DNA of 63,997 nucleotides, the filler included, from Reclinomonas americana ATCC 50394 (taxonomy: Eukaryota), in the NCBI GenBank assembly GCA_048213135.1. It is 12 parts of 12 records of this genome, joined end to end, with 100 filler letters (N's around TTAATTAATTAA, not from the genome) between each part and the next. Parts side by side here need not be neighbours in the genome. Positions count along the whole stretch, not along the records: positions 48,268 to 62,310 come from AFZH01018113.1; 11 more parts are not named here. The stretch is one strand, 5' to 3'. The translations under genes and the position numbers were made by a program. The stretch's first letter is position 1. The number at the start of each line of letters is the position of its first letter. The notes under the pieces are model-generated. The model had not been told where the DNA came from and did not search any database. It worked only from the letters and a program-made list of their open reading frames with translations. Positions 15,781 to 62,410 of this stretch are shown here, in pieces.

Positions 15781-15880
15781 NNNNNNNNNNNNNNNNNNNN
15801 NNNNNNNNNNNNNNNNNNNNNNNNTTAATTAATTAANNNNNNNNNNNNNNNNNNNNNNNNNNNNNNNNNNNNNNNNNNNN
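15781..15880. other. Artificial contig linker (N run + TTAATTAATTAA). The same linker occurs at 19544, 24648, 29464, 34026, 36523, 38907, 41230, 45526, 48168 and 62311.
   Basis: 100-nt blocks of N with a six-frame stop oligo in the middle. Confidence 0.98.
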
Positions 15881-19543: not shown

Positions 19544-19682
19544 NNNNNNNNNNNNNNNNNNNNNNNNNNNNNNNNNNNNNNNNNNNNTTAATTAATTAAN
19601 NNNNNNNNNNNNNNNNNNNNNNNNNNNNNNNNNNNNNNNNNNNCCGTCCGTCCCACACGATCGCACATTCTCCAAGCAATCA

Positions 19683-24995: not shown

Positions 24996-26175
24996 ATGGC
25001 TGAGAACGACGACGACCACGCTGAATACAAGCAGCGTCTGGCACCTCTGAAGCGCACTGGCTGGGTGCCTGTGTGTGAGGATGGACCCGCGGGTGTGTTC
25101 ACCAGTCTCTCTCTCTCTCACACACGCTGTCTCTCACTAAATCGATCGCCAGCCAATCGCTTCCAGTCGATGTTTGGTGGCCGTCAGCCTCTCATGCTGC
25201 CCAACGATCAGTGGCCAGTGTGCACGCGATGCAACGAACCACTGACGTTCTTCTTCCAAGTTTCGAACATGTGTGTGTGTGAGAGAGAGTCAGTGAGTGC
25301 TCATTGTGTGTGTTTGTGCACAGATCAACATGCGAGAGCTGCCGGATGAGGCGCAAGTGCAGCACGGTCGCGGCATGCTGCAGCTGTTCTTCTGTGCAGA
25401 GTGCGGTGTCTACGATGGTTCCAATGGCGACGGCTATCTCATTCGCATGGTTGGTGTCGGAGAAATTCCATCCGCGCCCTTGTTCCCTCTGCGTTTCTCA
25501 GCGTATTCCGTGCTCGTTGAGCAGCTGAATCTCGACGAGTTGTTGAATGGGAATGACGAGCCGGTGGGGCAAGTCGCACCGGCGGCCCCGTTGCCGCTGG
25601 TGCTGGCCGCACGCCATGTTCGCGAGTGGGAGGCGCGTGATACGCTGCCGTGTGCGACGGAGCTGAATGAGCGGCCCGAGTTGCTGCCGGAGGGAGTCGA
25701 GCTGGACGATGTTTCGTGTGCTTGTCGCTGGTCATTGGCGAAGGGTTTCTCGGTTATTCATTGGTGGTGCGCAGGAAATGGAGGATGCCATGATGCAGTT
25801 CGGCAGTCCTGGCGATAACGTGGGAGGGTGGCCGGAGTGGGTGCAGGGCGTTGAGTACCCCGAGTGTCCCGAGTGCGAGGCACGCATGACCAAGATCGCG
25901 TTCAATGCCGACTCGGAAAAGGCACTGTCGGACTGGATGTGGGGCGATGTGGGGTCTGTGGCAAGACATTCAGCGCGTGTGGAGAGTCTGCAAGCCATCA
26001 CTCACCACGACCACCCCCCGCAGAACTGCCCAGCTGTGCCAGTGCCCGACGCACGCCAACCAGTACAAGCTCGCGGTGCGTATATTAGTAACGACCGTCG
26101 CGGGAGAGTTCTTGACACTCACACTTCCGTTGCTTTGTTGGTGTTGGTTGCGAATGACAGTGGGCTTGCCACTAG
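24996..26175 (+). CDS. DUF1963/YwqG-like protein, copy 1 (7 exons)
   Basis: SMFGGRQP..WPVCTRCNEPLTFFFQIN, GRGMLQLFFC, PGDNVGGWPEWVQGVEYPECPEC, WMWGDVG, C-terminal WACH*. Confidence 0.8.
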
Positions 26176-26405
26176 TGCTCCGAAGTGCAGCACTGATTTT
26201 CCACCACCGCTGCGTTGTCTACCATGATCATGAGCCACATTGTAGTCTGGCAGCTTTTATATTTATATTTGTGTGTTTTGGCTTTTTATCTTCATCGCGG
26301 CAGAGAACACGTGGTGTCAGCATGCAGGCACTGGAGTTCCACCCACCTTGTTTGTCTGTCCTCTGTCGTGCAACGAAATTTGAGTTCGCTGCGTTGCTTC
26401 TGTAA

Positions 26406-27609
26406 ATGGCCGAGAAAGCCGGGCGTGGTACGTTGGCAGAACGTCTGGCGCCCCTGATGCGCACCTGTTACGTTCCCGTGTGTGTGGATGGTCCACCGGG
26501 TGCGTTCCCAGTTAGCGCTTCTCTTTCTTTCTCGTCCCCCCCTTTCTCTGGTAACTGACTGCAACCACTTCGCCACGCCGCGCCAGCCAATCGCTTCCGG
26601 TCGGCGTTTGGTGGCTGCCGCCCGCTCATGCTGCCCGGCGAGCAGTGGCCAGTGTGCACACAGTGCAACATGTCACTGACATTCTTCTTCCAAGTTGTGT
26701 TCATGTCTCGCGGCTCTACCCGAGGTCGAAAAAGTACTCAAATCTTGCAGATCAACATGCGTGAGCTGCCGGAGGAAGCTCAGGCTGAATATGGTCGCGG
26801 AATGCTGCAATTCTTCTACTGCACGAGTGATGATTATGGGCCACATTACTGCGCCAAGGCCCGTGATGATCGCGAATGCTGTGTCATTCGGATGGTGAGT
26901 TTCTCTGTTTCGACTTTACACAATTTTGAAGCTGTCTCTCACGTCTCTCGCCTCACAGCTGGATCTGGACGACCTGCTGAGCGCCAACGACGAGTCAGAG
27001 CAAGTCCTGCCAGTGGCTCCGTTACCGCGATCGTTTGGCGCACGACGGGTCAGGCGGTGGGAGGAACACATCTCGCTCGCGATGGATTCGGAGGTGAAGC
27101 TGCGGCCCGAGTTGCTGCCTGCTGGAACCCGGATGGACAAAGTTTCGTGCGCGCAGACTGCGTGTCGAGCTTGTGTACCGGGTAACTGAAATCGTGTCTG
27201 TGCGAGCACAGCAGATGAAAAGAGCCACGTTGGCGTTCCAAACTCCCGGCGACAATGTGGGAGGGTGGCCGGAGTGGGTTCAGGGCGTTGAGTACCCCGA
27301 GTGTCCCGAGTGCGGTGCACTCATGACCACAGTCGTGTTCAATTCCGAGTCGGTGAAGGCTCTGCCGGACTGGATGTGGGGCGATGTGGGGTGCGTGTGT
27401 GTGAGAGAGACAGGAAGCCTACCGTGCACTCGTCACGGTGGCTCACGAGCTCTGGTTCTCGCAGAACTGCCCAACTCTGCCGATGCCCGACGCACGTCAA
27501 CCAGTACAAACTCGCGGTGAGCACGCAAAAGAGAGACAGCGCGGTAGTCGTGGAAGTGTTCCCGTACTCACTTGCGTCGGGGTGCCAACGGCAGTGGTCG
27601 TGCCACTAG
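26406..27609 (+). CDS. DUF1963/YwqG-like protein, copy 2 (tandem paralog)
   Basis: Same motifs and the same six intron positions as copy 1; ends WSCH*. Confidence 0.8.
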
Positions 27610-27796
27610 TGCCAGGGCGACGACATCAGCGATCCGCACGAACGCAGTGGTAGTGCCGATCCCGTCATCCGTTGTCTGCAATGAAGCGCACTGTTGGCGG
27701 CTATGCACTGCTGTAGTGGCTGTTTCCATCATTCCAACACTTACCACGTCACCTTGTCGTGGTCTCTCGAATATCATCACCCCCGTTGCAGCGCGG

Positions 27797-29463: not shown

Positions 29464-29605
29464 NNNNNNNNNNNNNNNNNNNNNNNNNNNNNNNNNNNNN
29501 NNNNNNNTTAATTAATTAANNNNNNNNNNNNNNNNNNNNNNNNNNNNNNNNNNNNNNNNNNNNAGGTGCGCGTTCCCCCGTCCCCCCCCCCCCCTCCTCC
29601 TCCAC

Positions 29606-30602: not shown

Positions 30603-32549
<1,947 letters not shown>

Positions 32550-34125: not shown

Positions 34126-35572
34126 CTCGTGACAGGAAACGCATCAGCGGCGGCTACGCAGCGACGCAAGGAGTGAGAGAGAGAGAGAGAGAATGTCTGT
34201 GCGTGTGTGACGGTCGTTGATCGCAACACACCATCGAGGACGCTGGGGAGACCGAGGCAGCCGACGCCACCGTCTGTGCCTGTGGCGAGCAGACGTCCTG
34301 GTAGATCGAGTAGAAGCTAATGTCGCCAATCTCCCGCACCGCCTGGTCGAGTGCGCTGTTGCAGTTGGCGGCCAGCGGGCCAATCGAACCCAGCTGGCAG
34401 GTGGCGACAATGTCGGCATGCGTCTTCCACGAAATGAGACTGTGGCTGAGCCAAAAGTCCACCACGGCGCGATTGTCGATCGACGGGTCCAGCCACGGAT
34501 TGCCTGGGCGAGTCACCACAGTCGGCGCCTCTCAAGTACGCATGCTGCACGTGTGTGTGAATCAAACACTCACCGAGCAAGAGACCGACCAGGTTGATTG
34601 GGTTTGTGGCGTGCGCGTCGTTGTAGCGACGGATCTGCACCGCCAGGTTTGGCACAAAGTGACCAGCAAAACCTGCACATGATGGATCCACTTTAGTCAC
34701 ATCACTCTCCTCGCAAAAGGAGAGCACAGCCGCAACACAACTCTCGCCCGCCAGATACATCGGGTTCTTCGCAAACTGCGGGAACTGCTGCAAGAAGCCC
34801 TTTACAAACACCAGCTCGTCGGCCGCCACCCGCGCGTCCTCCTGCGGAAGAAGAAAGCCGAGCACCCGCGCGTGTCAGAGAATGCCAAGAAGAGGCGACA
34901 GGAAAATAACAAAGCAGACCGTGTGATAATCCGCGGTTTGCGACGACGTGCTGAAGCCCACACCCGCAGGGCTCTCCACAAACACAATGTTGGCGATCTG
35001 GCATGCATGGACACACAAGTCAGCTCACACATGTCTGTGCATGCAGGCAGGCACCGCCGACGCAACCTGGTTCCACGCATTGCTGTTCCACTGCAAATCG
35101 CGTCCATTGCTGTGCGGCCAGAAGGGTCCGAGTTCTGTGAACGCTCGTGCGCGGATGGGAACGAACTTGTCATGAGCCCCACCATGCACGCACGCACAAA
35201 GACAAAGGCGACACACAAGGCGACAACATATCAATGAGCGAGGAGCAGCCGGGTCCACCATTGTGCCAAATGATCAGTCTGCATTGCAAAATCAATCGTC
35301 GCTGTCTGTCGTCGACACACTCGCATTCTCTTGCGGCAAGCACGCAACGGGTCGGTCTCGGGGTTGCGCTTGCTCTCCATGAACAAGAAGAAGAGCTGCT
35401 TTTGTGTGCTCTCATTGATGGTGATGTAGCCACCGTGAATGGGTGCATTGTAGCTGGCGGGCTGGCCCGGAAGCCGCACGTTGCGCACAATGTGGTCGGC
35501 ACTTGCGCTGTGACTGATCACTGCAATCACCACCAGCAGCAGTAGCAGCAGTAGTGGTAGCCGTACTGTCAT
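34126..35572 (-). CDS. Serine carboxypeptidase (S10 family), 5' part
   Basis: Signal peptide, [68 protein letters not shown]. Confidence 0.9.
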
Positions 35573-48440: not shown

Positions 48441-51400
48441 ATGCTGAGCAGCGTTCTGCGATGGAGTGCACAACAGCTCTCCACGCCATCCTCGACGTCG
48501 AAAGCATCGTCAGCGATGATGACGACACTGATGACGCAACCACTTCGATGGCATCTCTCTCGGCGAGGATTCATCGAAATGAGAACCACACTGCCCGACA
48601 ACCCCGGTAGGAGCAGCAGGCACATTACTCACACACAGACACACTCTCTTCTCTCACACGCGCACACACATGCACGCAGGCGATGCACTGAAAAAATACG
48701 GCAAGGATCTGACCGAAGTTGCATACTTCTCTCTCTATTCCCCCACCTTCTCTCTCCCGCCACTCACACCTCCACTCACTCAGTTGGCGGAGAACGGCAA
48801 ACTCGATCCGGTGGTGGGTCGCGACGAAGAGATTCGCCGCACTCTGCAGGTGCTCGCCCGTCGCACCAAGAACAACCCGGTGCTCATCGGGGAGCCGGGC
48901 GTGGGCAAGACGGCGATCATCGAGGGCCTCGCGCAGCGTATTGTCAAGGGCGAGGTACCGGACAGCATTAAGAACCGGCGAGTGATTGCGCTGGATTTGG
49001 GCTCGTTGGTCGCCGGCGCCAGTTACCGCGGAGAGTTTGAGCAGCGACTCAAGTCGGTGCTGCGCGATGTGCAACAGGCCGAGGGCAAGATGCTGCTGTT
49101 CATCGACGAGTTGCACACGCTTGTGGGCGCTGGAGTGCGTTGCTGCCGAGTTGTCGCGATTGGTTCCGGTGAGGGAAACTGACTGTGCATGCAGGCTGCT
49201 GAAGGATCAATGGATGCGTCAAACATGCTAAAGCCGGCACTGGCGCGTGGCGACTTGCACTGCATCGGTGCAACGACGCTCAACGAGTATCGCAAGGTTT
49301 TGAGCGTTCGCGGTGTGTCAAGGGTGGAACCTGTCTCCTGACAACCACCACGCACACAGTACATTGAGAAAGATGCCGCGCTGGCGCGGCGATTCCAGAC
49401 CGTGTTCGTGCCAGAGCCGTCGGTGGAGGCCACCATTAGCATCTTGCGTGGATGTTGCGCCTCTTTCCTCTGTCAACTCTTGCCACCCCGAAGTGACGCT
49501 TCTTCGATGCTCGTGTGCAGTGAAGGAGCGCTACGAAGTGCACCATGGCGTGCGAATCGCCGATGGCGCACTGGTGGCCGCCGCTGTGCATTCGCACAAG
49601 TACCTGTCGGAGCGCAAGCTGCCTGACAAGGCCATTGACTTGGTGGACGAGGCGGCCAGTCGCCTGCGTCTGCAGTTGCGTGGATCTTTATCATCGATCA
49701 TGCTCGCTCTCCCTCACTTCACACACACACACACCGCAGGCAAGAGAGCAAGCCAGAGGACATTGATCAGCTGGATCAGGTCATCATCACGCTGAAGATT
49801 GAGCGCGAGGCGCTGAAGAAGGAGAGTGATCGAGCGTCGCTGGAGCGTCTCGATCGCGTCAATTCCGAACTGCGCCAGAAGCAAAACGAAATGGACCGCC
49901 TCATGAAAGTGTGGCAGGAGGAGAAGTTGCTTGGAGAGCTTCTCGTCGCTTCTTGTTGTTCTATCCCTGTTCTCACGCATATGCACAGGAAGCGCATCAA
50001 CGAACTGAAGGAGTCCAAGGCGGCACTGGAACGCGCCAAGGCCGAACTGGAACGAGTGCAGCGCACCGGCAACTGGCAGCGAGCCGGCGAGCTCAAGTAC
50101 TCGGAGATTCCCAAGCTGGAGCAGGCGCTGAAGCATGAGTTGCGTGCAAGTCAACTACACGAGGAGCATGTTTCTCTGTGTTCTCACATGCTTCGCAGAG
50201 AATCGGATGAGCTCCGGATGCTGAGCGATGTGGTGACGGAAAAGGACGTGCTGCGCGTGATTGCCAAGGCCACGGGTATTCCAGTCGAGGTGTGTGCGAG
50301 AGAGACGGCCGGCCATGTCAACCCTTTCCCTTTCTCGTCGCTCATCAAACAAACACAGAATTTGATGATGGGCGAGAAGGAGCGCTTGTTGCAAATGGAA
50401 AACATGCTCAGCAAGCGCGTCGTGGGGCAAGACGAGGCCATCAAGGCGATCAGGTGAGGCTCACTACCGAATTGTTATTTATTGCGTCTCTAGTTTTTTT
50501 CTGTTGTCTCATCGCCGTCGTCCCAGCAATGCAATTCGCGTGTCGCGTGCCGGTTTGCATGCACACAATCGCCCGCTGGGCTCCTTCTTGTTCCTCGGCC
50601 CAACGGGTGTCGGCAAGACCGAATTGTGCAAGGCACTGGCGCAGTTCCTCTTCAACGACGACAATGCCATGGTCCGCATCGACATGAGCGAGTACATGGA
50701 GCGCTTCTCCGTGTCGCGCCTCGTCGGTGCACCACCGGTACGCAATGTGTTTGCGTAGTGTGGCAGAAGTGAATTGTCGTCGCTCACGCGCCAACAAACT
50801 TGCAGGGCTACGTCGGCTACGAGGAGGGTGGCACGCTGACCGAGGCCGTGCGTCGCCGACCGTACCAACTGGTGCTGTTTGACGAGTTCGAAAAGGCGCA
50901 CCGCGAGGTCTCCAACATTCTGCTGCAAGTCATGGACGAAGGCCACTTGACCGACAGTCAGGGCCGGCGAGTCGACTTCAAGAACACCCTCATCATTCTC
51001 ACCAGCAACATTGGCGCACATTCGCTGACCCCCGACTTGTCGGTACGCATTCTTCTTCTTCTTTCGCCATGTTCACTGGCACTGACTGAACGGTGTTGTG
51101 GCGATCGATGACAGGATGCGGAAGTAAAGTCGACGCTGATGGATGCCGCGCGCAACTTCATGGCCCCCGAATTCTTCAACCGTCTCGACGAAGTGGTCGT
51201 CTTCAATCGCCTAAAGTTCGAGCACATGGATCGCATCATCGACGTTCAAATGCGCAGTTGCGATACTCACACAACCAGTGTGGCCGATGCTGGGCATGTT
51301 TACTGATGGAGACCGTGCGTGAACAGATATTCGCGGAATGCTGGCTGATCGACACATTGACGTGGAGCTGGACAAGCCCGCTCGCGAATTCCTGGCTCGC

Positions 51401-51744
51401 GTTGGCTTTGAGCCAGCATATGGCGCTCGGCCACTGAAGCGCGCCATTCAGGTACACATTGCTGCTGTGGAAGTTGACCTTGGCCGGTCTTGTCTCTCGC
51501 TCACACGCCGCCGTCGCTGTGACACCAGGAACACCTGCTGAATCCGCTCGCGGCTCGTCTGCTGCAAGGCGATGTGCTGGAGAACGATCTGGTGCGCGTT
51601 CTGGTGGACCCTGTTGACCGCAAGCAACTGACGTTTGAGATTGAGCACCGCGGTGAGCCTGCCGGCAAGGCCGACGGCAAGTCCGCGTCGAGCTCGTCCA
51701 CCAAATCGAATGGCTCCGTCCAGGAGGCCGAGATCGTGTCTTGA
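48441..51744 (+). CDS. HSP78: Mitochondrial ClpB/Hsp78 disaggregase (15 exons)
   Basis: Presequence-like N-terminus with no ClpB N-domain. Motifs [56 protein letters not shown]. Confidence 0.93.
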
Positions 51745-51806
51745 TCGGCATCGACACCCGCAGCATGCATAGAATGAGAAAACCATCGCCGTGAATGACA
51801 ATGCAC

Positions 51807-54161
51807 TCATGACGGATTTGTGGAGGCGGTGGGCGCGGGTGTGGGTGCGGGTCGACGGCTGAGATACTTGGCGTGTTGTGGCGCCATGACCGCACAGTCA
51901 ATGTTGAGCAGGGCACAGGCGCACGAGGTGGCGCGCTCCAGTACACCACGCTTGAGTGCACATGTCTCCCACACGCCTGCTGGTTTCTCGACAGCAATCA
52001 GTTCGCACATGCAAGGAAGGCGAGGTGAGGTCACTCGTTCAAACGAACCAGACTCGCGCATGTCGCCAACGGTGCCTGCCACCACATCAATGCCAGTCCA
52101 CCACTCCCCGCGCCGGTGCGCGACTCGGAGGCCTTGCAGGGTGCTGCATGAAGAGTGCAGCGTCAGTGGTCGGCGCAGAGAAAGGAATTGTAGTTGTCAT
52201 GTTGCTCACCTCGGCCAATCCATGCCGGCCGACTCGGCAAGCAGACGCACGTGGTCTTCGAGAGCCGCAACAAACACATTCACCGCCCCATCTGCGACCT
52301 CGGAACGCTGCAGGAGTGGCGAGTGAGAACAGACACGGACTGACTGTCTCTTTGTCAACGCGAACCAGTGCATCGTCGCGACACAATCGCGTCACCAGTG
52401 CCATTTCTGCACTGCCACCACCAGTGATGCACTGCAGACACGGAGCCTGTCAACATTGAACGGGATCACAGTTCGTGCGATGGCAGGTGCAAGAGTACCT
52501 GAAAACCACCGGTGCGGCGCTCAAACATGACCAGCGACAGCGCATCATGCATGGCACGACGGACCTCGGCAGCAGCGCTGTCGGTGGGAGCGCAGAGCAC
52601 CAGTGTCGAAAACACTGGTGCGCGGCCGTCGCTGACCTGCTCCACCTCCACGCGCCACTGCGACTCCTCAACACGCATCACTCGGATACACACCGGCGTC
52701 AGCTTGGACTCGAGACGATCGCCGGCGTCGGTGAGTGCACTCTGTGTTTTGAAAATGAAAGACAGTTGCCATCCGCGACAAGTGCCGTGCGCGCCAGACC
52801 TCGGTGAGTATCACACCCGCGGTGCACAGGAGTGCCAGCCGATCCAGCTCGGCATGGGACACACCGCCAAACACGTGAATGCCGTGCGCCTCGAACACTG
52901 CCTGCGTCTCAGCGGTGACCACCTGCGCCACACATGACGACCGATCAGCAACTCCTCCCCGCACCCACAGGCTAAGCAAGTGCCGCAACAGAGCCCACAA
53001 AAGCCGCAGCGACACCGAGTTCCGCCAGCCGTGCACACACGCTACGCAGTGCTTCTGTTCTCGCGCCACTGCCAAGGAAGGAACGACGGTGGGCATCAGC
53101 ATCTTATGATCATACATGCATGCGGATCCCCAACCTGTCGGGCGCACTGGCACTCTCCCATATGTGCCGCTCTGATCGCGCCGACGGCGCCGCGATGGAG
53201 GCACTCAGGCTTCGAATGACAACAACGTGACTCGGTTCGGTGGCCACGCTGCTGGCACGTGTCAGCGCGATGATCGTGGTATCTTGCTTTTTGACCGAGA
53301 TAAACGCAACGCCACCACGGCTGCGCCTGCCTTCACGCGGTCGATGCAAACGCCGTGAAACACACGCGACTCGTCCACCTGCCCGCCCACACGCTGCGCA
53401 AGAAACACACAATCACTGTCGTCCACATCGTCCAGCTCGAGAAGCGGGCACACCGCCTCGCACAGCAATGCCGCCAGATGCACACGCCACGGCGCAGCGA
53501 CCTTGGTGGCCAGACACGACATGGCCAGTCGCTCGACCGCCGATCGTGCACCAGCCTTTGAAGAAGACGAGGAAGCAGTGGCTGGAGTCAGTGTCTCGCA
53601 GGCACACAGTCGACGACACAGTTCCCACAGCGATGCAATCACTCGTGCCGGGCGCCACGAGTCGCGGCGGATGAGCTCCTTCCCGCCCATGCACAGTGCA
53701 ATGGCCAACAACGCCACCGAGGTTGTTCCGTCACCCACTGCATGCATGCATCGTCAGCCAGATTGCAATGAGTGTGCCTCCCCAGCGATCGATGCACACC
53801 TTCGCGTTCCTGTGCGAGCGCTGCCTCGCGTACGAGTTGCGATGCCGGGTGGCGCAGATCGATAGAACGCAACACTGTCGCACCGTCGCTGGTGAACACC
53901 ACTGATCCGAGTGGATCTGAGAGTGACAGAACGAGGATTAGCTGCAGCCTCCTTCTATGTGTGTATGTGTGTGCATGCAAGAGACAACGTGCCGGTAAGT
54001 GCTTTGAGCATGGCGTGCGGGCCGAGGAGCGTCCACAGCACTTGTCGCACGCGTCGCAACTCTCGCTCCATCCACTCATCGAGATCGGCCACTGCAGCAC
54101 CCTCGCTGGTGGTGCCGACCGCGGGGAGGAGTAGGCGCGTGTCGGGGTGCACGAGCTCCAT
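51807..54161 (-). CDS. Chaperonin-like BBS protein (BBS10/MKKS/BBS12 group)
   Basis: LLGPHAMLK, TSDGATVL..HP, VGDGTTS, GGQVDESRVFHG, TLVLCAPT, GGGSAEM, LLNID. Too divergent to be a CCT subunit; subfamily not resolved. Confidence 0.7.
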
Positions 54162-54220
54162 TGTCGACGCAGCGCGGATTAACTTTGTTTTTCGTTGAAT
54201 TCATTGACGGTTCGTTTTCT

Positions 54221-56188
54221 TCACGACGATGGTTGGGCGGCGGTGCTGCGCGGGAGACGAATGTCGGTGGGCGAGCGGACAGCAACACCTCGCTGCTGGC
54301 AGGCGGCAGTCAGGCGGCGTTTGATTACGGTTAGATCACGCTCGCCGACCGCCGCTGCGTCTTCGACATCGCTGCCACTCACGGCCACCACCAGCAGAGG
54401 ACCGCTCGAGCGCGTGAGAGAGACCTGCAGGTCGGCAGCCGATGGCGGCTCGTCCTCCACTCCTCCTATCGATCGCACACATACACACGCGCAGCGTCAG
54501 TGCCATCAGCATGGGGGAATGGTTGCGGCCAAGCAAGACAACGCAACCCTCGGACAAGATGACCACGGCGGCGCCACAGTCGCGCTCGTGCAAATGGTGA
54601 GGCGGAACAATGTCGACGTCGGCGGGCACATTCGGAGAGGTGACGAGCTCTTGCGCCACGCAGTCCTCGTGTACCATCACCGCCACCTCCGTGGCCGCAT
54701 GCACCTCGAGCAGACGCTCAATGCACTGTTCCACCGTCACGACGACTGCCTCACGGATTGTCAGCAAATCGACGCACATCTCCAGCCAAGGACGTACACA
54801 CAAGGCACTCAACGATCGGAGCGATTCGTGTCAATCAGCCACACACTGCTGGTGCCCTCTGGCCGGTCGGCATCGTCCTCGGCATCAGCAGCGGGCGGCG
54901 GAGCGGGAATCTCCTCAAACACCTCGTGAAGCACGTGAGCTGTGCTCGTCGTCAGCATCGATGAAGAAGAAGAAGTCAGCTAGGGGGGACTGCGACACGC
55001 AGACAACCGCACCGACTGTAGGATCCAGCCGATACTGCTGCTGCAGGTGACATTGCGAGGCGACACCAGACAAGCACCAGTCCAGCACACTCTCCGACAG
55101 AGCCGACACCAGATCGATCTGCGACTGCGGTATGCCACTCGACGGTACCAGTCGCGGTCGGGGACCTTGCACAGAACCAGCGCACACAAATTGCACCACT
55201 GTTTGTTCGCAGAGGAAGGAGATTAGTGAGCTCGAGTGAATGGTGTGAAAGAACACCACACCGAACGTACCATCGTGTCCGGCAGAAAGCTGCCAGCAAT
55301 TATTGCGCAAGTTGAGCATGGCGTGCGAGAATGACTACATCGACACAGAGAGTTCTACGCACCGGTACCATGCCCAGCGGCACGCTGCATTGCGAGGCGC
55401 CGTCGAGAATCACACGGTACACGGTGCCGGACTGAGGCAGTTGACGCGCCATGTGTCCGAGGTCGGCCAGAGTGACAAAGAAGATGCGAGCGGTGGACAG
55501 CGCACGGTCCAGCTGATCGTCATGACGACGCTGCGCGAGGATAACAGATAATGTCAGCTACTCCTATCAACAGAAAGACCACCGATCTCGCGTCACACCT
55601 GTCGCAGCGCTCCGGTCGACAACACACGACCTCCGCGGTAGAGAGACTCTGCACCAATGAATAAAAAAAGTAACACTGAGTCACCGTGCGACTGCGAGTG
55701 CTCTACGAATGGGGACTGATCACGTACCAAAGTACGACATGTGGGCGTCGGAGAGTGTGTCGTGCACGAGGCGCACCACATGCAGCTTGGAGGCAGCATC
55801 GGGAGCCTCTTTGAAGAACATGCTCGCCAAGTTGTCCACAGTGGCATTGGTCGGGCCAGTGACAATGACGCGGTCGTGATGGAACGCCCAGGTGAACAGC
55901 GACAGGATTGCCGTCAGGACCGACGACTTGCCTGGCGATACACACGCACACGCCTGTGAGTGAGCAACACTTGCGCTTGCACTTCTTCTCTGGCACACGC
56001 ACCTGTGCCTGGCGGTCCAGTGATGGCGACCAGGTTGTGCATCAGGGCCGCCTCCAACGCACCCAGCTGCGACTCATCAAACACGGCTTGATCGATCGAA
56101 CTCGCAGACGCCGGCTCCACCACGGCCGACGACTCGCCAAGTGCTACAGCGTCCAGAGAACCAGTGAGTGCGGGGTCACCCACAGCAC

Positions 56189-56246
<58 letters not shown>

Positions 56247-59204
56247 GACGCAACGAGTAGTTCGGAAGCGCGTTAACAGGCGCCACGGAACATCGGCCGA
56301 GTCAATGGCGAGCGACAGCAGCTCACGCAACGGCGTATCGGCTGCTAGTCCACTGGATCCGCTGACGTGGAGTCGGAGGCGCCTTTCGGCCGCCTCACGC
56401 GCCAACGTGCTCAATGATTTGGTCTTTGTTGGAGAAGCGAGGGGCACGTTAACACAAGGCAATGAACACCCCTTGAGGGGGAAAGACGCTGACACTAGCT
56501 CACCTGGCCACTGATAATGTTGCGAGTGTTGGTTGGCAGGTCGAGGTGCAGAATGTTGCGAATGGCGAACAGCATGGCCACCGTCTCGTGACGGTCCGTG
56601 TTGATCAAGCGACGCTCGTGAACCGGGTAGCGGCCACAGCGAGCGGCCACATTTGCCGCCTGCGTGTTTCCACACAGACAGTCAGTCAGCAACAATGACA
56701 TCAACGCGGTGGAATGGACTCGACGCACCTCTGGGGGCATTCCGTTTCCAATGTCAATGTGCAACTCGAGTGTGCGCAGACTGGCCACGTATCGACACAA
56801 ATGCTGTGCAGTGGCGGGTGAGCGACATGGGATGAGAAACAAGGGTGATTGTTGGCGCTGCTGCCTGTCACCTTGAAGCACACGTTGCGCGCCACGGTGG
56901 TCAGTCGCGCCTCACTGTCGCGGAACACAACATCACGCGGCAGTCCACGGCGAACAAACTCCTCGTGCACCCACGTGAGCGGCTGCACGTCCTCCGAGGC
57001 GTACACAATGAGATCGCGCGACAGTGGTCGGTGTTGCCAGAGATTGCTGCGGTGCACAAGATGGTTGAGGGAGAGCGAGAGATGACCGACGACTGCGCTG
57101 CACACACCGGTCCTGATTCATCATGCTGCGCACTTGGCTTTTGAGGTCGGTCGCCGACTTGAACCCGAGCTGAATCAACAGACTCGTGAAGCCAATCTCC
57201 CGAGAGGGCTTGTGCTGCGAGTCGCCACATCTCTCAGCACTTCAAGCAACATCGCACTGCGCGTGTGAATGGATGGTCACGACGCACCTGTCGCTGCATC
57301 AAGTGCTGCCACGCCACCTGCGTGTCGAACACGGATCGCAGAACAATTCTGTACTGCTCCAGCAGTGCACCTGCGTCAGCACGGCAGTCGTGAATGACCT
57401 GTGGGGGGTCACATGTGCGCGCAGTCAGCTTGTATGCACTCACAACACGAGCTCATGAACACTGACCTTGGTGTAGGCCGGACTCTCCAACAGCCACCGC
57501 AGAGTGCTGGTGGGCTCGGACAGCATGCGCGGCTCAGTGGAAATGTCAAACAGGTACACGTTGCCACGCGGATCCGACAGTTGCAGCAGACAGAGTGCGC
57601 CGCTGGTCGTGGAAATAGTATACCAGCAAGAAATCAACACCGATGCATGATTGTGCACACCAGATGCATGTGACGACTCACGTGTACGACAGATTGACTC
57701 CCTCACAGTCCCACCCGAGCACGTCGTACTGCTGCAGATGCGAAGCCACAATCTCACATCGCGCGTATGAGTCCACCAGGAACAGCTTCCCGTAGATCCC
57801 TGACATTGGTTGCGACAGGTTGTCCACCAGCATCTTCTCCCACTCCTGCCGATCGTCCTCCGGCTGTACACAAATAAAATGAGTGTCGATAGCACTGCCA
57901 CCAACACTGGCATCAAAGCACAACGCACTCTCGGTGGCGACGACAGAGACGATACGACTGAAGCGGCTGTCATCATGCCGGAATTCAACGGCGCCGGCAC
58001 ACTGTGAGGTCGCGACTGTGCCGACACGCCACCACCACCACCACCGCTGCCGCCATTGACGCCGCGCGGCGAATGCGACAGTGGAGAGGGACCGCCGCCA
58101 GAGCCACCACCAGCGCCAGCACCACCGCTGCCCGGCGGCGAGCCCATGGGATTGAACGAGTACATTGGTGGCGACGGTTGCGGCGGCGGCCTGCCCATCA
58201 TCATGCCCGGCGGTCCAGCTCCTGCGGGATAGTACGGCGCTGGCAGATGCATGGGCTGGCGCGAGGGCGACGGCATACCACCGGGCATGCCGTACGGCAT
58301 GTGACCGAAGGAGCCGGGGGGTGAGAACGCCATGGGCACGTACAGCGGCTGCCCCGGATTGTAGCCGGGAAACCAGAGTGGCGAGCCGACCGACGGTCGC
58401 ATGGAGGAGGCCCCCGGCGACGACGGCATATGCATCGGCATGGATGGCGAATACACAAAGTCAGTCGGCGTACGCGTGGCCGGTGAACCCACAGCCGGAC
58501 CCCGCGATGACGGCGACTGCTGCTGAGTCGGCATCGGAAGCTGCGACGGTGCACGCGAATACACTTGTCGCGGCTGCTGCTGCTGCTGCTGCTGTGGCTG
58601 CGACGGAGGCGCACGCTGCTCCTGCGGCTGCTTCACCACCTGCAGCGACACAGCAGCTGGTGGAGGCGACGCTGGCGGCAGCGGCGACGGAGAAGCCGCA
58701 GGAGGAGGAGGAGACGCCGGCGGTCCGGGCGACGTTGGCGGCCGCGGACTCACCGACACCATCCACGCCGGCGTCCGTCCCTGCGACCACACCGACTGCA
58801 CCTTACTGCACGTGCACACACATCATAAGCCATCACCACCACCACACGGAGCTCATCGCGCACACACAGTGAGTCGCACGCACCCACGCGCTGGCACCGG
58901 CTGCACCGGCTCATCCTCTCCATTCTCACCATCCTCATCAGCATCATCGTCCCCGCCACTGCCCGCGGTTGCAGCAGCTGCTGCTGCAGCAGTTGCTGCT
59001 ACGCTCGCCGCATGTGCACTGGCATGCGCAGCAGCACGCAGGTTGCGGCGACGCGATCGTCGGCGACCTGCGCAAAAAGAGGGAAGCCATCGTCAGTCAC
59101 ATTCTCGCATCTCTCTCTCTCTCTCTCTGTCTCACTTGCTGTTGTCTGTGACACTACGTGTGTGCTTGTGGGTGAGAGAGAGAGAGAGCCCTGACGCAAC
59201 CCAT
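54221..59204 (-). CDS. Pro-rich N-terminus + EXD1/Egalitarian-like DEDDy 3'-5' exonuclease + degenerate UPF1-like SF1 helicase
   Basis: Exonuclease: GWDCEGVNL, LCLLQL, YLFDI, KVIHDCRAD, FDTQ, WQHRPL..YASEDV. Helicase: FDESQ, GPPGTGKS, PTNATVDN, ILDGASQ, QYRL, VSLTRS. Confidence 0.75.
56192..56244. repeat. (CA)n microsatellite inside an intron. Similar tracts near 900, 38655, 43550, 45325 and 47845.
   Basis: Direct dinucleotide runs. Confidence 0.95.
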
Positions 59205-59434
59205 ATGTGCTGTCTGCGAGTCTGCAGGTGCGCGCGCGCGTCAGCAAAACGCACACGCACACACAGACACAGACAGGCTTTCTCCTCTCGTCACGCTCTG
59301 CTCACGCGCGCTGTGCACACACACAGAGACAGACAGAGACGGAGAGAGAGAGAGAGACAGGCGCACAAACGCAGACAAAAGTCGATGAGAGAATTTCACC
59401 TGCTGTCGGATTGATTGGTGTGGTGTGTGTTGAG

Positions 59435-62310
59435 ATGGCGAGTGCGAGCGGAAATCGCACTCTGGTGCCCTCCTTTGACTTGCACCTCAATCATAACATT
59501 CTTGAGGGACTCGCCGTCGTTGGCAAATGTTACGCACACAAGCAAACACTAAACAAACTGACTGATTGTCACGACAAAACGCACACACACTCTGTCTCTC
59601 TGTCTTGCACTGTCACTCGCAGCGTGCGTGTGTGTTGTGTGCTCTCTCTCTCACACACACACACCTCTTTTCTCTGTGTGTTGTGTTGGATCTCTCTCTG
59701 ATCACTCACATGTCAAGTTTGTTTTTTCGCGCGCAGATGATGGAACTCACCCGATCCTCACTTGCGCCACCTCCGGCTGCAAGGTGTTCATGCACAACCC
59801 GCATGCGCAACCCGACAAGACCACTTTCCTCACCAATGCCAGTTGAGTCTGTGCGAGAGAGAGACAACTTGAAAGACACACTCTCTCAATCACTCTTCCT
59901 CCTTCTCCTCCTTCTTCTCCTCCTCCATCTTCTTGTCTTGTTCTTCTTCTTCTTCTTCTTCTTCTTCTCCTCCTCCTCCTCCTCTTCCTCCTCCCTTCTC
60001 CCTTCTCCCTTGCCCTCGTCTCACTCTTGCGCCACAGTTCAATACCTCAACATCAACAGACCTGTGACGGCAATGGCTGTCGGCGCACCCAACGTGAACT
60101 CGTCACACGATGCACTCTTTGTGGGCATGGGCACCAACTTGATGGCGTTGCGTGGTCTTCCCCCCCCACACACTCTCCATTGTCGTCGCCAAGTGGTGCT
60201 CAAACGTCTTGCCCGCAGGTACGACGTGGAGCGCAATCAGGATTTGTTCTATCGCGATGTGCAGGATGGCGTCGGCGGCCTGGTGTTTGGACGCATTGGC
60301 AATCGGCCGATTCCGCTCATCATTGCCGGCGGCAACTGCTCGGTGCAGGGGTTCGACTACTCCGGCAACGAGTCGTACTGGACGGTGACGGGCGACAATG
60401 CCTCGGCGCTGACGCTGATTGACGTGAATCGCGATGGCGAGAACGAGCTGGTCGTCGGCACCGACGACTTTGTCATTCGTATCTTCCAGAACGACGATGT
60501 GGTGGCGGAGACGGTACGCGAATGACCCCCGACATTAGCGTTGTGCACACACGTCGTCGCCTGAAGAAAAGAATGCTGTACAGGTGGAAACCGATCGCGT
60601 GGTGGATCTGTGCTCCATCCAGGGACCACGATACGGCTACGCGCTGGCCAACGGCACCGTGGGTATCTACGAGGCCGATCACCGCGTGTGGCGTGTGAAA
60701 TCCAAGAGCAGTGTGCTGTCGGTGGTCGGCTTTGACCTCGACGGCGATGGCGTGCCGGAGATCATCTCCGGCTGGAAGAGCGGCAAGTTCGAAGTGCGCA
60801 ACCAGGGCACTGGCGAAGTGGTCTACAAGGATCACTTTTCACGAGCCGTCGTCAAAGTGCTCACTGCCGACTACCGAATGGACGGCAACTTTGCCGTCAT
60901 TTGCTGCACCTCCGAGGGAGAGAGTTGCGTGGCGACAGTTGCCGCAGTGATATCGAAGTGCGGCCGCTCAACTCTGCTATTATTGTGTTTCAGTCAAGGG
61001 TTTCCTGCCGGCCACCGAGGAGCAGGCTGCCGAGCTCATGGACAATGCACAAGAAGAGGAGCAGCTCAAGGCTCTCAACCAGCACAAGCAGGTGCGCTTA
61101 TTATGCAGAGGGACTGGAGACGACTCACCTGCTCACCTTCCTCTCTCTCTCTCTGTGTGTGCGTGTGCAGGAACTCATGTACGAGTTGCGTTCGTACGAG
61201 GAGAATCTGCGGAAACTCAAGGCCGGCGAGAGGAGTGCTGGCCTGGTCCCGCATGACACTCACGTCGGCTGTGCTCTCGTCGTTGCGTGTGTGCTGGTGG
61301 TTACTGTTACTTCCTTTCCCTATCTCACCATCCGTGTGCACACAGGGCGATCCATCGAGACGCATTGTCGAGGCAGTGATTGAGAGCACTCCAGGCACGG
61401 TGATCAAGGCAGCCGTGTTGTTTGCGGAGGGATTGTTTACGGGCGAGAGCTTCTTCTCTTGCCCGCGGGAGCCGACGAACCAGCTGCGCATTCCCATCAA
61501 GCCGGAGCGTGATGTGGGATGCACCATGTTTATTCAGGCCATGGTCGGCACACGCATGGGAACGCAGTTCCACGTGTTTGAGTTGGCCTTGCTGGTTCCC
61601 AAATTCTGTGTGTACGTGTTGGAGCCGCGCGAGGCCGTCAAGAGGCCACGCTCGTCGGTTGCATTCAGGCTCACACAGCGGAATCAACGAGTTTCGTGTG
61701 TTGTCGCCCGCCGTCTACTCCCTTTGAACGAGTGACACGCTCAACCAATTGTTGCAGATTGGCTTGTGGTTGGAGCGCAGCTTTGGTGTGCCTGCTGCTT
61801 CACTCCCGGACTCAGACGCAATCGACATTTCGCTGCGATCGATGCGCGACGGCACCGTCGTCGTCATGCAGTTCACCACCGACCGCTTGACCATATACGT
61901 GGATCGCATGGATGTGGCCGCCGATATTGTGCAAGACATGTGTGAGGCGTTTGAGATTGATGAGCTGGAGAGCGAAGTCGACTTTCCCGAGGAAATGGAG
62001 CGCTTCCGCACTCTGCTGCAGGAGGTCTGTGTCTGATACATATTTGTGCCAGGTACGGCATTCTTTCTGCTTGCTGACTCGTGTTCGATGGCAGGTGGAC
62101 GAGTTCAACGCGGCACGCCTGAAGATGAATGCCGAAATGGCCGACAGCTCACAACTCATCAAGACGCTCGTCATCAAGGCCGAAGACGCACGCATTCTCG
62201 GCGACATGAAGCTGATGAAGCAGATGTACGGCGACTTGCACGACCTCAACCGCGAACTCATGGGCGAGTACCAGAAGCGAGCCAACAATCATGCCGAGCT
62301 GCTGCGCCAG
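59435..62310 (+). CDS. BBS2: Bardet-Biedl syndrome 2 protein (BBSome core), truncated by gap
   Basis: GKYDGTHP, YDVERNQDLFY, GGNCSVQGFD, WTVTGDN, YALANGTVGIY, FDLDGDGVPE, DYRMDG, KAEDARILGD. Confidence 0.95.
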
Positions 62311-62410
62311 NNNNNNNNNNNNNNNNNNNNNNNNNNNNNNNNNNNNNNNNNNNNTTAATTAATTAANNNNNNNNNNNNNNNNNNNNNNNNNNNNNNNNNN
62401 NNNNNNNNNN

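Follow-up and report, generated by a model that had tools for sequence, protein, structure and literature searches.

Some atypical human 5' splice sites (donors) are paired by U1 small nuclear RNA (snRNA) in a shifted (+1) register, described by Roca and Krainer in 2009 and given in PMC4856993 and PMC9311317 (PMC identifiers stand here for the accessible portions of those articles). All pairs between the 5' splice site and U1 move by one position in this register, and its model oligonucleotide has A at the last exon position, -1 (PMC4856993). Registers with a bulged nucleotide at +2/+3 have also been described (Roca et al. 2012; Tan et al. 2016; PMC4856993), and the validated noncanonical registers together account for ~1.5% of human 5' splice sites (PMC4856993). 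Here, we analyzed the donors in a window of 63,997 nucleotides (nt) from Reclinomonas americana ATCC 50394 (GCA_048213135.1), the window being the whole stretch of DNA studied, 12 parts joined end to end. We report that its introns fall into two donor classes and that the smaller class corresponds, base by base, to the larger one moved by a single nucleotide relative to the cut.

The shifted donors of the window resemble the human shifted register in several respects: the motif lies one base downstream of the cut, the +1 G would take the slot of the -1 G, the +2 U would be mismatched, the last exon base is of the A type, and cleavage, as predicted from sequence in the window, still occurs at GU. 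The human class, however, is a small part of the ~1.5% mentioned above, whereas the class in the window makes up ~28 to 33% of the predicted introns and occurs in nearly every gene. The core also differs, GCGU here and AAGU in human, and the human register has been validated, whereas the class in the window is derived from sequence alone. As in the bulged registers at +2/+3, an extra U follows GU and precedes a normal +3 to +6 motif, but the bulged registers keep the -1 G pair, and G at -1 is depleted to 9% in the shifted class.

Dependence between the two sides of the donor is well known from the classic -1G/+5G compensation ("seesaw"; Burge and Karlin in 1997; Carmel et al. in 2004), where -1G is nearly invariant in donors that have lost +5G (PMC8283771), and from the left- and right-handed classes of 5' splice sites (PMC11842720). 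The window shares with the classic compensation a statistical tie between the last exon base and intron positions, but across its two classes the sign is opposite, since shifted donors, which lack +5G, also mostly lack -1G (present in 6/64). The mamiellophycean alga Micromonas has the same AG/GTGCGT donor consensus (the slash marks the cut) and a CTGAC-type branch site (PMC3879977). In contrast to the window, which is far more intron-dense, no one-base-shifted class is mentioned for Micromonas in the accessible portion of that article. A literature search, which did not extend to the organism's own genome paper, returned no description of a one-base-shifted donor class in any genome. The kind of mechanism is already known; a scale such as ~28 to 33% of predicted introns is not.

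Results

Two donor classes differ by one base

The window is gene-dense, has a G+C content of 53 to 61%, and contains genes interrupted by very short introns. Our evidence consists of the DNA of the window and of homologous proteins, and the junctions outside three checked genes (Hsp78, BBS2, and PRMT1) are ab initio predictions. Introns were predicted with a purpose-written Viterbi gene finder that combines a three-periodic Markov coding model, intron composition, matrices for the acceptor and the branch site, and a length term. In a first version, hereafter GT-only, a donor had to contain GT and positions -3 to +8 were otherwise unscored; this version yielded 28 gene models containing 243 introns (median length 70 nt). 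When an unsupervised two-component mixture was fitted to positions +3 to +8 of these donors, it separated a T-G-C-G-T class (29%) from a G-(C/A/T)-G-T class (71%), and the share of the former was 29 to 33% across the versions of the finder. A second version, in which donors were scored with the mixture and exon bases were never used, yielded 231 introns in 29 gene models. Both versions required introns to start with GT and end with AG by construction. Since the -1 base was absent from the choice of introns, selection could not create an association between this base and donor class, and wrong calls would only dilute one. Homologues of the three checked genes were retrieved with single-exon queries and then aligned to the spliced models; the check reached 28 of the 30 introns predicted there, of which it confirmed 26 and showed 2 to be wrong.

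Canonical donors, (C/A)AG/GTG(C/A)GT, make up about two thirds of the introns and shifted donors, (C)A/GT-TGCGT, about one third. For counting, we also used a simple rule in which canonical donors have G at +5 and shifted donors have T at +3 and G at +6 but no G at +5. The canonical class shows G (67%), C (43%), G (92%), and T (69%) at +3 to +6, and the shifted class shows G (75%), C (88%), G (96%), and T (68%) at +4 to +7. Position +3 of shifted donors is T in 68/73 (93%), like the +2 T of canonical donors. GCGT is the commonest four-base core in both classes, and the variants GAGT, TCGT, and ACGY also occur in both. Among canonical donors, T/GTGCGT is notably common.

The correspondence extends into the exon. 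Shifted donors have A, C, G, and T at -1 in 40, 26, 12, and 22% of cases, which is indistinguishable from the 37, 28, 19, and 17% found at -2 of canonical donors (chi-square p 0.56) but strongly different from canonical -1, where G reaches 77% (p 5e-18). Compared with coding composition, A is enriched and G is depleted at both shifted -1 and canonical -2. The shifted -1 counts have a log-likelihood of -85.5 when modeled with the profile of canonical -2, of -95.5 with coding background, and of -146.3 with the profile of canonical -1. The canonical CAG/GTGCGT and the shifted CA/GTTGCGT thus stand one base apart within a nine-base motif, and the shifted motif is cut one base further upstream. This agrees with the proposal of an earlier note on this DNA that H/GTTGCG (H being A, C, or T) is G/GTGCG slid by one base, with the +1 G in place of the -1 G. 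In short, the window holds two classes with a one-base correspondence at every informative position and GT-AG borders, and the profiles support viewing the shifted class, ~28 to 33% of predicted introns, as the canonical recognition motif moved one base downstream of the cut.

Apart from the donor, introns of the two classes are alike in branch motifs, branch-acceptor distance, acceptors, and length. A YTNAY branch motif was found 8 to 50 nt from the acceptor in 63/73 shifted and 140/151 canonical introns, with CTCAC and then CTGAC as the commonest forms in both classes, and C precedes the acceptor AG at -3 in 68/73 and 136/151 introns, respectively. CTCAC outranks both CTGAC and CTAAC as a branch motif, and acceptors favor GCAG, with G at -4 in 88/143 canonical and 35/64 shifted introns. 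Overall, the window is that of an intron-rich eukaryote with GT-AG introns of ~70 nt, a CTCAC/CTGAC branch site, a CAG acceptor, and two classes of 5' splice sites.

Three other origins of the shifted class were considered and rejected. True borders lying one base downstream (HG/TT) were excluded because all four informative verified junctions give the conserved residue only with H/GT. At 49454 (Hsp78 intron 5), GT-AG borders yield a junction codon for the conserved L, and sliding them by +1 yields one for W. At three BBS2 junctions, the residues with GT-AG borders are Y at 59529 (Y/F in 11/12 homologues), I at 59842 (I/L/V/M in homologues), and I at 60924 (V/I in homologues), compared with C, S, and S, respectively, if slid by +1. 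RTATCCTT is the donor motif of U12-type introns, which are removed by the minor spliceosome. It has no match on either strand of the window, and the branch motifs of shifted introns are the same as those of canonical introns, so a U12 type was rejected. Introner elements were also rejected, as an all-against-all blastn comparison of the 231 intron interiors returned only low-complexity matches of at most 24 nt and overlapping predictions on opposite strands.

The last exon base is tied to donor class across the window

The earlier note had proposed a genome-wide contingency test of the -1 base against the intron-side donor type, and we ran it window-wide on the 231 predicted introns. By the simple rule, G occupied -1 in 6/64 shifted and 110/143 canonical donors (p 1e-20), and in 13/24 donors that fit neither class. 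The difference persisted in the 204 introns outside the three checked genes (5/51 vs 101/133, p 8e-17) and when classes were assigned by the mixture (11/77 vs 118/154, p 3.8e-20). It was also found in the 162 introns on which the two versions of the finder agreed (3/44 vs 75/96) and in the output of the GT-only version by itself, where -1 was G in 5/44 GTTG donors and 108/199 others. Likewise, a stringent set of 113 introns that break the frame, measure 50 to 110 nt, end in a YAG acceptor, and carry a branch motif gave 2/26 for shifted and 54/71 for canonical donors. The association was present in each of the three intron phases.

G at -1 is less frequent in shifted donors than in the coding background (32%; p 4e-5). 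Among GTTGCG copies outside donors, 18/72 are preceded by G, which shows that the bias belongs to donors and not to the hexamer. Nearly every multi-intron gene contains shifted donors, with no heterogeneity between genes (p 0.37), and a relation of donor class to the base that opens the following exon was borderline (p 0.054). Altogether, these results confirm that the association between the -1 base and donor class is real and reaches beyond the three genes.

Junctions verified in three genes

The junctions of three genes were checked against homologous proteins.

48441..51744, + strand: Hsp78/ClpB gene, 14 introns, spliced model colinear with ClpB homologues
59435..62310, + strand: BBS2 gene, 9 introns, 3' side entering an N gap, colinear with 8 BBS2 homologues
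30925..32549, + strand: conserved part of the PRMT1 gene, 4 core introns, colinear with 7 PRMT homologues
31143, 31499, 31773, and 32421, + strand: donors of the PRMT1 core introns

In Hsp78, 13/14 junctions were gap-free against ClpB homologues. The last donor of the model, 51473, was wrong, as it yields a 7-residue insert relative to ClpB; this donor probably lies at 51452 (G/GTACAC) instead, a position that closes the frame, and the coding sequence curated in this way has 786 codons and one terminal stop. For BBS2, the best relatives show 53 to 64% identity and come from scattered eukaryotic groups, and a metagenome scan with one BBS2 exon matched 595 patterns, of which 0 were confirmed. 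A predicted intron of 393 nt at 59042 was rejected as a false call, since it lies upstream of the conserved BBS2 start. Two more introns are predicted at the N terminus of PRMT1 (30538 and 30696) and are putative. Taking the three genes together, removal of the introns left 26/27 junctions gap-free against homologues, the remaining one being 51452, checked by frame closure.

Fourteen of the 27 introns have shifted donors. Their hexamers are GTTGCG (nine times) and GTTGCA, GTTGCT, GTTACG, GTTGAG, and GTTTCG (once each). In the lines below, coordinates include the -1 base.

48717..48724, + strand: shifted donor A/GTTGCAT, Hsp78 intron 2
49453..49460, + strand: shifted donor T/GTTGCGC, Hsp78 intron 5
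49674..49681, + strand: shifted donor A/GTTGCGT, Hsp78 intron 6
49925..49932, + strand: shifted donor A/GTTGCTT, Hsp78 intron 7
50138..50145, + strand: shifted donor A/GTTGCGT, Hsp78 intron 8
51256..51263, + strand: shifted donor A/GTTGCGA, Hsp78 intron 13
59528..59535, + strand: shifted donor T/GTTACGC, BBS2 intron 1 (208 nt)
59841..59848, + strand: shifted donor A/GTTGAGT, BBS2 intron 2 (196 nt)
60146..60153, + strand: shifted donor C/GTTGCGT, BBS2 intron 3
60923..60930, + strand: shifted donor A/GTTGCGT, BBS2 intron 5
61281..61288, + strand: shifted donor C/GTTGCGT, BBS2 intron 7
61690..61697, + strand: shifted donor A/GTTTCGT, BBS2 intron 8
31772..31779, + strand: shifted donor C/GTTGCGT, PRMT1, 345-nt intron
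32420..32427, + strand: shifted donor T/GTTGCGT, PRMT1

The canonical-type donors of the same genes are given by their first intron base.

48607 G/GTAGGA, 49135 A/GTGCGT, 50290 G/GTGTGT, and 50454 G/GTGAGG, + strand: first four in Hsp78
50738 G/GTACGC, 51043 G/GTACGC, and 51452 G/GTACAC, + strand: last three in Hsp78
60514 G/GTACGC, 61092 G/GTGCGC, and 62025 G/GTCTGT, + strand: BBS2
31143 G/GTCACT and 31499 G/GTGCGT, + strand: PRMT1

The 14 shifted donors follow A (8), C (3), or T (3) and never G, whereas the other 13 donors follow G (12) or A (1) (Fisher p = 7.5e-7). These figures agree exactly with the hand count of the earlier note, which had covered 27 introns (Hsp78 14, BBS2 9, and PRMT1 4) and had found G before none of the 14 shifted donors and before 12 of the 13 others.

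The first two introns of BBS2 (59529-59736 and 59842-60037, + strand) measure 208 and 196 nt, about three times the usual length, and are rich in CT/CTT low-complexity repeats. Both carry shifted-type donors.

Exceptions to the rule

Some donors depart from the rule that shifted donors avoid G at -1 and canonical donors follow it.

49134..49141, + strand: canonical donor after A, A/GTGCGTT, Hsp78 intron 3
49296..49303, + strand: G/GTTTTGA, with T at +3 and G at +6 but T at +5, Hsp78 intron 4; junction verified, register ambiguous
35060..35067, minus strand: G/GTTGCGT in a serine carboxypeptidase (S10) gene with a Pfam S10 match
59194..59201, minus strand: G/GTTGCGT in the 5' leader region of the large minus-strand gene (54221-59494), predicted intron
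54541..54548, minus strand: G/GTTGCGT near the 3' end of the same large minus-strand gene, predicted intron with a weak acceptor (ATAG)

The earlier note had singled out 49135, 49297, 35066, and 59200, and all four are present at these positions, the last two on the minus strand. A/GTGCGT at 49135 fits the classic compensation. The donor at 35066 is questioned by the donor-agnostic model, which picked an in-frame GT 12 nt downstream (35054), and the exception at 59200 sits in a low-complexity region between divergent genes.

Classic compensation is also visible within the canonical class, where the perfect GTG[CA]GT occurs in 20/33 donors after A, C, or T and in 38/110 donors after G. The earlier note had described the coupling between the two classes as a compensatory rule that frees coding sequence from the -1 G requirement. 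"Compensatory" proved misleading, since the classic link is reversed in sign here, which fits a change of register and not a trade-off. Nor were shifted donors significantly enriched in the intron phases in which a -1 G is costly (p 0.11), so the idea that coding sequence is freed found no backing.

Discussion

The close match between the two motifs suggests a simple mechanism. The shifted class is probably bound one nucleotide out of register by the factor that recognizes donors, for which the U1 snRNA 5' end is the presumed candidate. The +1 G of the intron would then fill the slot of the exonic -1 G, the +2 U would lie mismatched across from the +1 G slot, and positions +3 to +7 would take the places of +2 to +6. 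Cleavage would stay in front of the only GU, presumably fixed by U6 and U5 at a later step. In a shifted donor, the final base of the exon would be the equivalent of canonical -2, and this equivalence would explain why it is rich in A and poor in G. We infer U1 as the reader, and likewise the steps that follow its binding.

Several points weigh against this mechanism. The 231 introns are for the most part ab initio predictions, and the sample is a single 64-kb window. The other points concern pairing energies, which were computed by evaluating each register explicitly with the standard U1 5' end as printed in PMC4856993. The mean duplex energy of shifted donors after A, C, or T is only -0.6 kcal/mol in the shifted register. 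Canonical donors average -6.0 kcal/mol in their own register, and the two consensus sequences give -2.5 kcal/mol (shifted) and -9.2 kcal/mol (canonical). Most shifted donors score below zero in no register, and the canonical register is credited in 48/73 of them through a tie at 0 kcal/mol. Furthermore, the C found at +5 in 88% of shifted donors cannot pair with standard U1. The earlier note had placed the shift within the U1 helix and had called for pairing energies in the canonical and +1 registers. Its register is supported by the sequence profiles, and the shifted consensus scores better in that register than in the canonical one (0 kcal/mol, with standard U1, from which the organism's own U1 may differ). 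The shifted donors themselves average only -0.6 kcal/mol with the standard U1 5' end whatever the register.

Weak pairing with standard U1 and the unpaired +5 C would be compatible with a lineage-specific U1, with an additional U1 variant, or with recognition through U6, U5, or proteins. An Rfam search of the window detected no family, snRNAs such as U1 included, at the gathering threshold, and with E-values up to 1 it returned only a chance match resembling a microRNA. A lineage-specific snRNA would have either a changed U1 5' end (for example, one pairing with +3 G and +4 C) or two U1 variants, complementary to CAGGUGCGU and CAGUUGCGU, one for each donor class. Besides the poor pairing of the shifted class with standard U1, such a change would suit the C preferred at canonical +4 (43%) and far more at shifted +5 (88%). 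Indeed, a hypothetical U1 with UU changed to GC would pair with shifted donors at a mean of -5.0 kcal/mol in the shifted register, which would then be the best register for 60/73 of them. To our knowledge, however, the U1 5' end is very widely conserved. AG/GTGCGT is also the consensus in Micromonas, for which the accessible portion of PMC3879977 reports no changed U1, and overall we find this explanation unlikely. A bulged U is less likely still. Under this model, the pairs of U1 (and U6) with -1, +1, and +2 would be the usual ones and the extra U at +2/+3 would protrude, after which the pairing of +4 to +7 would be that of canonical +3 to +6; these four positions are explained no less well than by a shift. 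The bulge register at +2/+3 is validated for some human 5' splice sites (PMC4856993), it outscores the other registers in the 9 donors of shifted type preceded by G (-5.1 vs -0.6 kcal/mol in the shifted register), and for U6 some bulge seems unavoidable under either model. But a bulge predicts that the -1 G is kept or favored, and it is found in 6/64 donors, below the coding background; the canonical -1 profile, which a bulge would preserve, describes the shifted -1 counts far worse than the canonical -2 profile does (-146.3 vs -85.5). Moreover, a bulged base could be any base, and +3 is T in 68/73.

The shifted motif might also be read independently of U1 pairing, with U6 and U5 as its main readers or with a protein (U1C or a LUC7-type factor, for instance) in that role, the -1 bias then being a preference of the U5 loop or of the protein. 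The near-zero U1 pairing predicted for shifted donors is in line with this, LUC7 proteins define classes of 5' splice sites that differ in exon-side versus intron-side strength (PMC11842720), and a role of U5/U6 in the -1G/+5G link has been argued (PMC8283771). Such reading nevertheless leaves unexplained why the motif is an exact copy of the canonical one at a one-base offset, including the A preference of canonical -2, and we hold it to be very unlikely. Finally, the association could be an artifact of a small hand count, of wrong intron borders, or of donors chosen by strength. The hand count did comprise only 27 introns, and the gene models contain errors. Yet the association persists in the 204 outside introns, with the GT-only finder, with the finder blind to -1, in the 113 stringent introns, and in all three phases. 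Selection on total strength would make the -1G/+5G link negative, but the link is positive, and random errors dilute associations and do not create them, so that an artifact is hardly credible.

In human genes, donors of the shifted register are a rare oddity. If roughly one intron in three uses such donors, the genome would hold natural test cases by the hundreds or thousands. They would bear on how U1 binding becomes a precise cut and on whether snRNAs coevolve with splice-site dialects. A bolder version, which we regard as doubtful, is that a dedicated or remodeled snRNA reads one intron in three. This snRNA would be a U1 with its 5' end altered so as to pair with GCGU, or else an additional U1 variant that is complementary to CAGUUGCGU. 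If true, U1 binding would be uncoupled from the choice of the cleavage site genome-wide, and U6 and U5 alone would set the cut. On the practical side, gene finders with a single donor matrix (-1 G and +5 G) would miss or misplace about a third of this organism's introns.

Other features of the window

A gene on the minus strand between Hsp78 and BBS2 (51807-54161) has weak Cpn60/TCP1 matches (E-values of 8e-8 and 9e-5, below the Pfam cutoff), and it could encode a BBS-type chaperonin-like protein adjoining BBS2. Two small genes, 24996-26405 and 26406-27684 (both + strand), adjoin each other, have a nearly identical stretch (PGDNVGGWPEWVQGVEYPECPEC...) in common, and appear to be tandem paralogues. 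A Pfam search with one exon from each of these two genes gave no match.

The N gap at 62311-62410 (100 bases) holds the 12-mer TTAATTAATTAA in its middle (62345-62356), which has stops in all six frames and looks like an assembly linker, whereas in the other gaps, such as those at 15781-15880, 19544-19643, and 29464-29563, all 100 bases are N. The large minus-strand gene at 54221-59494 has a predicted intron of 111 nt that includes a (CA)n microsatellite of ~50 nt (56195-56245).

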